From Mobula birostris (lineage: Eukaryota): a DNA stretch of 64,000 nt. The notes under the pieces are model-generated. The model had not been told where the DNA came from and searched no databases. It worked only from the letters and a program-made list of their open reading frames with translations. The stretch is from assembly GCF_030028105.1 (NCBI RefSeq), contig NC_092376.1, positions 164,205,613 through 164,269,612 on the forward strand, read 5' to 3'. Position numbers and translations under genes: made by a program. Of this stretch, positions 33,601 through 36,600 are shown one piece after another. Every line of letters begins with the position of its first letter. The first letter of the stretch is position 1.

Positions 33601-36600
33601 TGTATGAAGGAAGTTATAAATTGAAATTATAATTTCCATTTATTAAGCTATAATTGAAGGCTGTAACTTAATAAACATTCATAAACTTGACACTTATTAA
33701 GTTATGGCCTTCAATTATAACTTAATAAACATGTTGTACAGAAAACAATGGTTAAACAGCAAGCCAACATATTTATAGTAATTATCTATTTCACAGTTTA
33801 GGATCCTGGAAAAACAGCATCTCTGACACTAATTGCCAAATATAAATAAAAGTATTTACTGTAGTTATTGACTGCTCAACCTTTACAGTTCATAGTCTGT
33901 AAATTTGTATGAGTACAGAATAACTCCAGAGATGGACATTGTCATAAAGTTGTACCCCGACAATTAGTCATTTAATAGTTTCTCTTTCCATTCTCCGTTA
34001 CCCTCAATTTTAAAATGTCAGTTTTGTGCACGCTTGTATGCTATAGCTGTACAAATCAAAAATTCATCAATGGCAATCTGTCTTCTAAGCAGATTAAATG
34101 TCTAGAAATGCTTTATAAAAATAGTTCCTTTGAATGTTAGCTTCTGCATTGTAAAACTTCACCGTGATTTCTTTGCAGCAAGAAGCAAATCATGTTCGAT
34201 TCTGGAAACCAACCATTAAAATACGTTGACCAATTTATTATATATATGACAGAAACTCACTACCCTTTATCCAGGCATTTGCTTGATGTATTTTGTAATC
34301 TATCATGACCCTTCCACAGTCTTCTTGAAAATTCTGTGTGCTTTGAATTATAAGTAGTATTAGAATTGACGGAAGTTTGAAATGATGACCTTCTCAAATA
34401 AACTATTGCAGTGATATGATCTCTATGTAATAAACTAAAGAACTAGGCATTGCTTGAGCACTTCATTTCTACCTCATTTGCTTTGTGGCCTTGTTTCAGG
34501 GTGTAGGACCTCAGGAATATACTTTAATTAAAATGAAGATCCTTGAGCCTTATCCTGCAAAATTAAGGTACAGTTTTCACTTGTGAATAAGCAAATGGGT
34601 TTTTATCTCATTTAGTGTCTGAATTTGACCTTCCATCTCTGGAACTAAGTTACTGCTGCCTGACCTGTTTTTAAAGACAATAGTAATATATCATTACACA
34701 AGATATTTAAGAATTTAGTTAAGTAAACTAACACTGGAGGAAAAATTGGATGAATAAGTTCTTTTTAATATAAAGTATCATTCAGTTATGGGGTGTAATT
34801 GAGAATTGCAGAAAATCCTAGTCCAGCAAATCACATTGAGTGGGAGTTGAAAAGCATTTACATTTTTTGTTGATCATCTTTCAAGACATTGGTCACAAGC
34901 CATAAAGGACCCAGATGTTGATTTATTAACAAATTAGGTAATATTTCATTGAAGGCAAGACAGTTTGTAATGCTGATGAGGTATACATTTATTAATACCA
35001 TCTCTTTTTAGCTGGGTGACACATTGGTTACACATTATACAGGCATATATTTCTCCATTTACAGAATCTCCAAGAGATTTTAATTGAATCTGCATTAACA
35101 CTGCAGCAGGACATGATTTTTAAAAAATGATAATTCTTCCTGCAAATGCTTCTTTGTTGAACCAACTTCCCTCATCTGACTTTGTTCAACCATGCTTCAA
35201 TTATTGGGTATATTTGAGACTCTCAGTAAAATGGATGTTTCAGTGGATGTTGTATAGAGTAGCTATTATTACAATGCACAAAATTCATTTAAAATCTGAG
35301 GCTGGGGATAGAATAATAGGGGGAAAAGTTCAACTTTATATGTGGCAAAAAAAAACATAATTGCTGTCCACCTTAGGCAATCGGTTTCATTTTCTGTTTT
35401 GCAGTGGCCTTAAAGGTCAAAACGTCTTTCTAGTGGCTGCTACTTTAAGACCAGAGACCATGTTCGGACAAACCAATTGCTGGGTTCGCCCTGACATGAG
35501 GTATATTGCTTTTGAAATAATGAATGGAGACGTATTTATCTGTACGCAGCGGGCAGCAAGGAATATGTCTTTCCAGGGGTTTACCAAAGAAAATGGAAAA
35601 GTGCCTTTGGTGATGGAGCTAATTGGAGAGGTAAATACTTATTGCATATTGGTGATTCGTGCAGACTTTTGAATGAAATGTCATTTTCTGAAAGCTCTGC
35701 AATATTAAATTGTGAATATTATAGGATCTTAGCAGAAAACACTGAAAATGGAAAAAAATTATTTATCCTAGTTGATTTAAACATATTTTATGTTTTTCTC
35801 CAGGACATCCTCGGTGTGTCACTGAGTGCTCCTTTGACATCCTACACTGTTATCTATGCTCTCCCTATGCTCACCATCAAAGAAGAAAAAGGTACTCCAT
35901 GTTCTTATACCAGGTGTTAGTGTATAGAACTGATTCAGATTTGGAAATTTAAAAACTATCTATTTAAGCAACAGACACACATCAAAGTTGCTGGTGAACA
36001 CAGCAGGCCAGGCCGCATCTCTAGGAAGAGGTACAGTCGACGTTTCGGGCCGAGACCCTTCGTCAGGACCAACTGAAGGAAGAGCTAGTAAGAGATTTGA
36101 AAGTGAGGAGGGGGAGGGGAAATTCAAAATGCTAGGAGAAGACAGGAGGGGGAGGGATGGAGTCAAGAACTGGACAGGTGATTGGCAAAGGGGATATGAG
36201 AGGATCATGGGACAGGAGGCCCAGGGAGAAGGAAAAGGGGGAGGGGGGGAAAAAACCCAGAGGATGGGCAAGAGGTATAGTCAGAGGGATAGAGGGAGAA
36301 AAAGGAGAGAGAGGGAAAGAATGTGGGTATATAAATAAATAACGGATGGGGTACGAGGGGGAGGTGGGGCATTAGCGGAAGTTAATGAAGTCAATGTTCA
36401 TGCCATCAGGTTGGAGGCTACCCAGACAGAATATAAGGTATTGTTCCTCCAACCTGAGTGTGGCTTCATCTTTACAGTAGAGGAGGCCGTGGATAGACAT
36501 ATCAGAATGGAAATGGGATGTGGAATTAAAATGTGTGGCCACTGGGAGATCCTGCTTTCTCTGGCGGACAGAGCGTAGGTGTTCAGCAAAGCGATCTCCC

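Follow-up and report, generated by a model that had tools for sequence, protein, structure and literature searches.

A stretch of 64,000 nt from the genome of Mobula birostris (assembly GCF_030028105.1, contig NC_092376.1, positions 164,205,613 to 164,269,612; hereafter the window) carries a minimal type-I hammerhead motif at positions 36034–36071 of the minus strand, in a copy of an abundant Penelope-like element (PLE). By its sequence, the motif was confirmed as a genuine copy of the hammerhead already described in PLEs. This kind of motif has been known since 2014; new here are a high-copy family in a cartilaginous-fish genome and the results on copy ends and on a predicted latch in the RNA fold. 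From the analysis and the modelling taken together, we consider it probable that this terminal-repeat hammerhead would cut RNA slowly and with the aid of a helper, and that genomic copies of the element would be made from uncut RNA.

Read on the minus strand from 36071 to 36034, the motif runs UGGUC, CUGACGA, an extra A, GGGU and GCCC around the loop CUCG, GAA, ACGU, C17 and GACUG, and it fits the published PLE consensus at every position. Its parts, all on the minus strand, are the 5' arm of stem I (36067–36071), in which an A-to-G change private to this copy produces a G.U pair; the core box C3–A9, with C at N7, and the extra A preceding stem II (36059–36066); the 4-bp stem II, with G10.1-C11.1, and its 4-nt loop (36047–36058); G12–A14, the loop-less palindromic helix III ACGU and C17 (36039–36046, from direct reading and the class descriptor); and the 3' arm of stem I (36034–36038). 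The predicted scissile bond is 36039/36038. A preliminary description of the window had given this place, box order and cut site, and the sequence reads exactly so. The core boxes CUGANGA and GAAA with an NUH cleavage site were present, as were a palindromic 15.1–16.1 without loop III (here ACGU), the extra nucleotide after A9 (A in six of six subfamilies) and the G10.1-C11.1 pair (in this copy and in families B–E). The fit to the class consensus and the reverse transcriptase (RT)/GIY-YIG element around the motif bore out the earlier naming of a PLE with a minimal type-I hammerhead. The extra A had been excused by a viroid exception (CChMVd), a precedent that is unneeded, as conservation of this A is typical of PLE minimal hammerheads. 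In stems I and II, 84% of cells were paired, compared to 15–43% when the arms were slid. The Rfam 15 models gave no hammerhead match at E ≤ 1 in the window, as would be expected for a motif without helix III; matches to mir-71 at 19298–19372, below the Rfam cut-off, were dismissed as the product of a head-to-head inverted stub pair. A second conserved block lies 19 nt past the scissile bond (35989–36019, minus strand) and is likely a protein-binding or reverse-transcription start element.

The motif shares with the minimal hammerheads in the pseudo-long-terminal-repeats of PLEs (Cervera and De la Pena 2014, PMC4209133) the core boxes, the extra nucleotide after A9 and G10.1, as well as the loop-less palindrome, the short stem I and a U-rich 5' flank. 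Also common to both are motif pairs with a spacing of about 3 kb, truncated copies bearing a solo 3' motif, and close opposite-strand pairs. The motif of the Acropora digitifera Neptune element (PMC4209133) has a near-identical layout (N7 = C, extra A, 4-bp stem II, 4-nt loop, ACGU, C17). A dominant lineage with G10.1.U11.1 sets the Mobula family apart from this class. No cartilaginous fish was seen in the Figure S3 list or Table S1 of PMC4209133, as far as these were consulted.

Longer copies of the element encode, in single frames of up to 909 aa, an RT with a YIDD motif, a C-x3/4-C-x2-C linker and a GIY-YIG endonuclease. The RVT_1 and GIY-YIG Pfam matches (frames of 909 and 863 aa) were both below the Pfam cut-off, and the domain labels of homologues were concordant. 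The best named homologues, from cartilaginous fishes, were 66–81% identical; other records, of which those with a name came from marine invertebrates, reached approximately 40–53%. One unit spans about 3.5 kb and consists of a hammerhead, an ATG 155–167 nt after C3, RT, the cysteine linker, GIY-YIG, an untranslated region (UTR) of about 300 nt and a further hammerhead. An initial set of 20 long copies contained no case of a frame connected to an upstream terminal repeat, and many of these copies had inverted truncated partners. After walking in the 5' direction, partial tandems with two same-sense motifs were found at four of eight long loci of sister family B and one of 13 loci of family A. 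The C3-to-C3 spacing in these partial tandems was 3,237–3,761 nt (3,534 nt in the single family-A case). At loci L101–L104 and L271, both terminal repeats held a hammerhead in the sense of the open reading frame (ORF). Some family-B copies (L101–L104) have an open frame from the hammerhead to the ORF start. It is absent in family A, whose spacing differs, and, since no frame through the motif is kept there, the region was treated as UTR. Open frames of 909, 863 and 819 aa (L267, L268 and L269) suggest recent activity of family A.

Neptune and Nematis are defined by RT followed by a C-terminal GIY-YIG, with a CX2-5CxxC linker (PMC8557442). With the Neptune clade (Craig et al. 2021, PMC8557442) the element shares RT and C-terminal GIY-YIG, the linker, partial tandems, inverted 5'-truncated partners and a one-sided tail. 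A CX2-5CxxC linker was present between RT and endonuclease, and partial tandems, inverted truncated partners and a tail of 30–40 nt were all found in the element. Linker, domain order, the match to the Acropora Neptune motif and a presumed host range make Neptune the likely clade, this host range and the Acropora match being our grounds for preferring it over Nematis.

The preliminary description had counted one motif per 4 kb and concluded that the genome-wide load was very large. In 48 spaced stretches (479.8 kb in total), we found 119 copies of the terminal module, or one per 4.0 kb, which extrapolates roughly to a million terminal-module remnants in the genome. The motif is covered by 77 of these copies; the core is retained in 26, and six pass the strict descriptor. 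Decay was mostly at CpG sites. The intact-core pattern (core, 3-bp stem I, 4-bp stem II, ACGU) had 43,073 matches in the genome and none in the control. The conclusion of a very large load therefore stands, with one qualification: the density of one per 4 kb holds for remnants and not for intact motifs (six of 119; one intact core per 93 kb). An exact 31-mer had 7,114 matches in the 4.01-Gb genome versus none for the reversed control, and both the family profile and the strict descriptor had no matches on reversed sequence. The intact-core count exceeds the approximately 4,000 motifs in coelacanth and 9,000 in Xenopus, which were obtained with a different search method (PMC4209133). The family-A downstream-block marker had 82,161 exact matches. 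A large tandem duplication is suggested by three endonuclease matches of equal score, spaced at about 43 kb (G000:C1:35282943, 35325944 and 35368934).

We mapped the ends of 96 distinct family-A copies from 90 loci in the first 4.35 Mb of one contig, picked by the downstream block alone. Downstream, 84 of the copies end in two clusters, approximately 66 and 100–105 nt past the scissile bond, which match the 30–40 nt tail pattern of PLEs. Upstream, 43 copies are short stubs that start no more than 58 nt from the block; stubs are approximately 100–135 bp long, and many start at or inside the motif. The start was at positions 50–52 in 15 copies (the first base of stem I being 51) and inside the motif in 21, while only 16 copies start in the next 212 nt upstream. 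No start among the 96 lies 2 nt or less from the scissile bond. Genome-wide, 2,542 starts were at G2.3 and 189 were six bases upstream. The search pattern behind the first count is not family-specific; without the 28 of 100 listed matches that could be point mutants of other families, the excess is still about tenfold. As junctions often have microhomology of 1–3 nt, the edge of stem I is known to about 2 nt. Starts at this edge and none at the scissile bond indicate that the template RNA was likely uncut, with its 5' end likely at the edge of the ribozyme.

Assembled contigs of seven sequencing runs contain the repeat, and their loose ends at 36069 and 36033 are stem I edges, although contigs cannot show RNA ends. 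One contig joint, 36066–36371, had non-canonical ends. In all subfamilies, the 5' edge of stem I fits what we take to be an initiator-like pattern and also a polypyrimidine tract followed by an AG acceptor. An intron of Drosophila virilis Penelope ends at helix I (PMC4209133). Among the loci inspected here, no joint between coding end and motif was seen of the kind that splicing to an acceptor at this edge would leave; no systematic search was made.

Folding predictions for five natural 38-mers agreed in all five cases: stems I and II form, and G5–G8 pair with C15.2–C17 (probability 0.98). This predicted latch would hide the cleavage triplet in a lone monomer. The active double hammerhead was predicted to be 9–11 kcal/mol worse than two latched monomers. 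This gap depends on the identity of N7, with predicted values of 9.1 (C), 5.5 (U), 2.7 (G) and 1.1 (A) kcal/mol. The stability of the 38-mer folds was unremarkable relative to shuffled sequences (z from -1.25 to 0.58).

Conservation was assessed on 354 full-module copies, of which 232 had a homologous UTR and 200 fell into seven clusters of at least three; six clusters (196 copies) were tabulated, and young copies are over-represented among the loci. At approximately 290 fourfold sites, families A and B are 51–52% identical, and BLAST does not align their 3' UTRs. The commonest letter of the motif is nonetheless the same in 33 of 36 columns, the three differences being two in loop II and one at 11.1 (C or U); the binomial P for up to four differences is approximately 2e-6. 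All catalytic-core letters are common to the six clusters, the two smallest (n = 3 and 4) differing at one palindrome or stem II position. The preliminary description had made its ribozyme depend on core boxes better conserved across subfamilies than their flanks and, measured against the UTR, they are.

In the mechanism we favour, the active form would be a double hammerhead, its helix III formed between the ACGU palindromes of two motifs. Cutting after C17 in the full-length element would be slow and would need a second motif and probably also the element protein. The protein would bind the conserved block downstream of the motif and start reverse transcription internally, and, because this start lies downstream of the motif, the template would have to carry its 3' motif uncut. 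Long truncated copies such as 35975–36781 on the minus strand would result from initiation at the 3' repeat. Initiation at the 5' repeat would run off the end of an RNA that begins with the first nucleotides of stem I and would give stubs. In D. virilis, PLE transcription begins within the upstream repeat. Protein aid and an uncut template are suggested by the anole PLE, whose hammerhead needs its protein to cut and for which uncut RNA is the main substrate (PMC11167929). That element (Poseidon element of Anolis carolinensis, PAc; Frangieh et al. 2024, PMC11167929) shares with the Mobula family a hammerhead near the ORF start, two downstream copy ends defining a 30–40 nt tail and a lack of ends at the cleavage site. 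It belongs to a different clade, and its ORF starts inside the ribozyme, whereas the Mobula ATG is 155–167 nt after C3. Protein-assisted cleavage has been demonstrated for PAc and is a proposal for the Mobula family.

A more specific version of this mechanism can be put forward tentatively, although we lean against it: the hammerhead would sit at the RNA 5' end, latched on itself while being copied, and there would be two internal RT starts, the upstream one mass-producing the stubs of 100–135 bp. If this version is true, upstream-start stubs explain the tens of thousands of solo motifs in such genomes, and the fossil record shows cutting outside the copying step in a vertebrate Neptune element.

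Several observations weigh against slow, assisted cutting with uncut templates. One of 29 family-B copies, which is inverted, begins at the scissile bond, and a long copy begins 5 nt beyond it. The pile-up of stubs could reflect a polymerase stop at the hairpin, which is the main alternative, given the 21 starts inside the motif. A cap-derived extra G at stub starts, hinted at by four of five copies, was rejected: genome-wide, G and A were almost equally frequent (496 and 493), and most of 30 inspected G cases abut an inverted partner that supplies the G. Of 147 copies folded in a context of 105 nt, 83 favoured the latch and 70 favoured stem I, and the window copy at 36034–36071 (minus strand) was predicted to misfold in 110 nt; all these folding energies are for secondary structure only, with Mg2+ and tertiary contacts left out of account. 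Conservation between families A and B is almost as high in the downstream 31-nt block (26 of 31 columns), so it is not specific to catalysis. Covariation in stems I and II, to which the preliminary description had looked for support, was not found within the Mobula birostris genome: the score was 0.139 in 69 distinct, barely varying motifs versus 0.159 in shuffled alignments, and 490 of 500 shuffles reached the score of the real alignment. U is found at 11.1 in 38 of 49 family-A copies, making G10.1.U11.1 the dominant young lineage, even though the G10.1-C11.1 pair has been described as highly conserved in PLE hammerheads (PMC4209133). This lineage (e.g., L267–L279) keeps its other CpG sites, which argues for a lineage change and not decay; our literature search found no paper on the effect of G10.1.U11.1. 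Finally, the choice of Neptune over Nematis was made on the linker and the presumed host range, and Nematis shares the linker.

The model of the preliminary description, in which tandem transcripts are cut efficiently to unit-length transposition intermediates by a double hammerhead of RNA alone, appears unlikely. The loop-less ACGU palindrome and the paired motifs 3.5 kb apart fit it, a review deems PLE hammerheads likely to cleave as dimers, and dimeric and trimeric Schistosoma constructs do cut, though weakly (PMC4209133). The copy ends speak against it, as 89 of the 96 block-selected copies run upstream through the cut site or start at most 8 nt upstream of it, with no start within 2 nt of it. 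Moreover, cleavage of the 3' motif would deprive the RNA of the inferred reverse-transcription start, the active dimer is predicted to be disfavoured and the published in vitro rates are low.

It is quite unlikely, too, that the motif has lost its cutting activity and persists in a structural or promoter role (as initiator, 5' end or protein landing site). The lack of detected covariation, the conservation of loop II and of the downstream block, and G10.1.U11.1 in the dominant young lineage would all be in keeping with this, as would stub starts on a sequence that we take to be initiator-like. Hammerhead mutants also leave insertion of the anole PLE in vitro unaffected (PMC11167929). Against a non-cutting element, the differences between subfamilies are at sites where hammerheads tolerate them (loop II, the wobble pair and outer stem I), the catalytic core is uniform in six of six subfamilies, and PLEs from across the animal phyla retain this core.

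The window copy itself is a 5'-truncated Neptune-type PLE of 807 bp (35975–36781, minus strand), 92% identical to family copy L177. It comprises a broken cysteine linker and GIY-YIG coding end (36375–36780) with a stop codon at 36372–36374, a pyrimidine-rich 3' UTR from the stop codon to the hammerhead (36072–36371) and the hammerhead, the sole fully intact one in the window; from the stop codon to C3 is 305 nt. The insertion fills most of an intron (35897–36835) of LARS1 (cytoplasmic leucyl-tRNA synthetase), to which it is antisense. LARS1 lies on the plus strand with exons from approximately 19008 to 65036, the last one past the window end, and the exons adjoining the intron are at 35804–35896 and 36836–36919. 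That the motif regulates LARS1 pre-mRNA under host selection, or resembles a hammerhead by chance, is very improbable and was rejected, because this lone intact copy in a small intron of an essential gene is an ordinary antisense truncated insertion, 92% identical to dispersed copies, and is one of 43,073 where reversed controls gave none. Most of the compact LARS1 gene is within the window, and its introns hold 12 terminal-module copies, eight of them sense. The six sense copies that cover the motif are all defective, but four of these have G12-to-A at a CpG, and the number is too small to establish an orientation bias in LARS1. Solo copies in host introns would be near-inert.

Non-LTR retrozymes (Li et al. 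2026 preprint, 10.64898/2026.07.22.740005) share with the stubs short non-coding type-I hammerhead units derived from PLE terminal repeats, and they have been reported in one chondrichthyan. We rejected a retrozyme reading: the Mobula stubs are dispersed singles or inverted pairs without head-to-tail arrays (two same-sense neighbours within 300 nt among 128 copies). Since they end at the PLE tail, the stubs look like direct products of the autonomous element. The literature searched, which left Dfam, Repbase and most subscription papers outside, held no description of the hammerhead or latch of the Mobula family. The motif by itself changes little, its kind being established, whereas the in vivo role of PLE hammerheads is still called unclear. 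The 82,161 exact family-marker matches form an unusually large record in which copy ends can be mapped against the scissile bond, and the 43,073 intact-core motifs, some of which lie within essential-gene introns, lend the genome to an orientation-bias study of pre-mRNA activity. Cheap direct tests are possible for the accumulation of starts at the edge of stem I, their lack at the cut site, the predicted latch and the G.U lineage.

All 15 places listed in the preliminary description are copies of one repeat, and five further fragments lack the motif. Intactness did not extend to the whole list: one-by-one alignment found core, 4-bp stem I, 4-bp stem II and ACGU together in just one of the 15. 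The copy at 53923 (plus strand) is near-intact, and the others are damaged in core, palindrome or stem I, much of this being CpG decay. The five GIY-YIG remnants in the window are all upstream of a motif and in the same sense, in agreement with the orientation reported earlier. Nowhere in the window do two intact motifs occur in the same sense, and the bare two-box pattern was not above chance in it (12 matches versus 7.6 ± 3.1 in shuffles); the repeat family, judged by the reversed controls, is above chance.

On the minus strand, an old copy with a broken core lies at 4365–4451; the copy at 7109–7206 has a GIY-YIG remnant (7533–7748) and alterations at A6 and in the palindrome; the one at 9849–9940 has a coding remnant (10059–10873), a helix III deletion and a broken stem I; and the one at 46748–46845 has a GIY-YIG remnant (47124–47369) and three core changes. 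On the plus strand, the inverted partner of the 7167 copy is at 7900–7979 (A6 and G12 altered). G12 is also altered in a copy with a GIY-YIG remnant at 21784–22086 (22304–22420), in a copy of the same family as the intact motif (40347–40443) and in two old copies, at 56153–56251 (palindrome altered as well) and 62449–62545 (palindrome and stems altered as well). The near-intact plus-strand copy (53922–54015) is a short stub starting from stem I, with an intact core, a 3-bp stem I and G10.1.U11.1. Its 14-bp target-site duplication (stub at 53908–54035) is clean, and several other stubs have similar duplications.

Two head-to-head pairs were present in the window. At 11273–11447, both members are short stubs that start near C3 and have broken cores; at 19209–19461, G1.1 is altered in the minus-strand member (19265) and the palindrome is broken in the plus-strand member (19368). 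These pairs, like those at many other loci, are near-perfect hairpins. Elsewhere in the window, inverted repeats of 219 bp (96% identical) at 1446–3037 flank broken frames at 1779–2767, which presumably derive from a Tc1-type transposase. Fragments that we take to be LINE RT-like (CR1-, L2- and L1-like) were located at 5918–6397, 26855–27292 (both minus strand), 28476–28907, 46366–46704 and 47994–48815 (plus strand).

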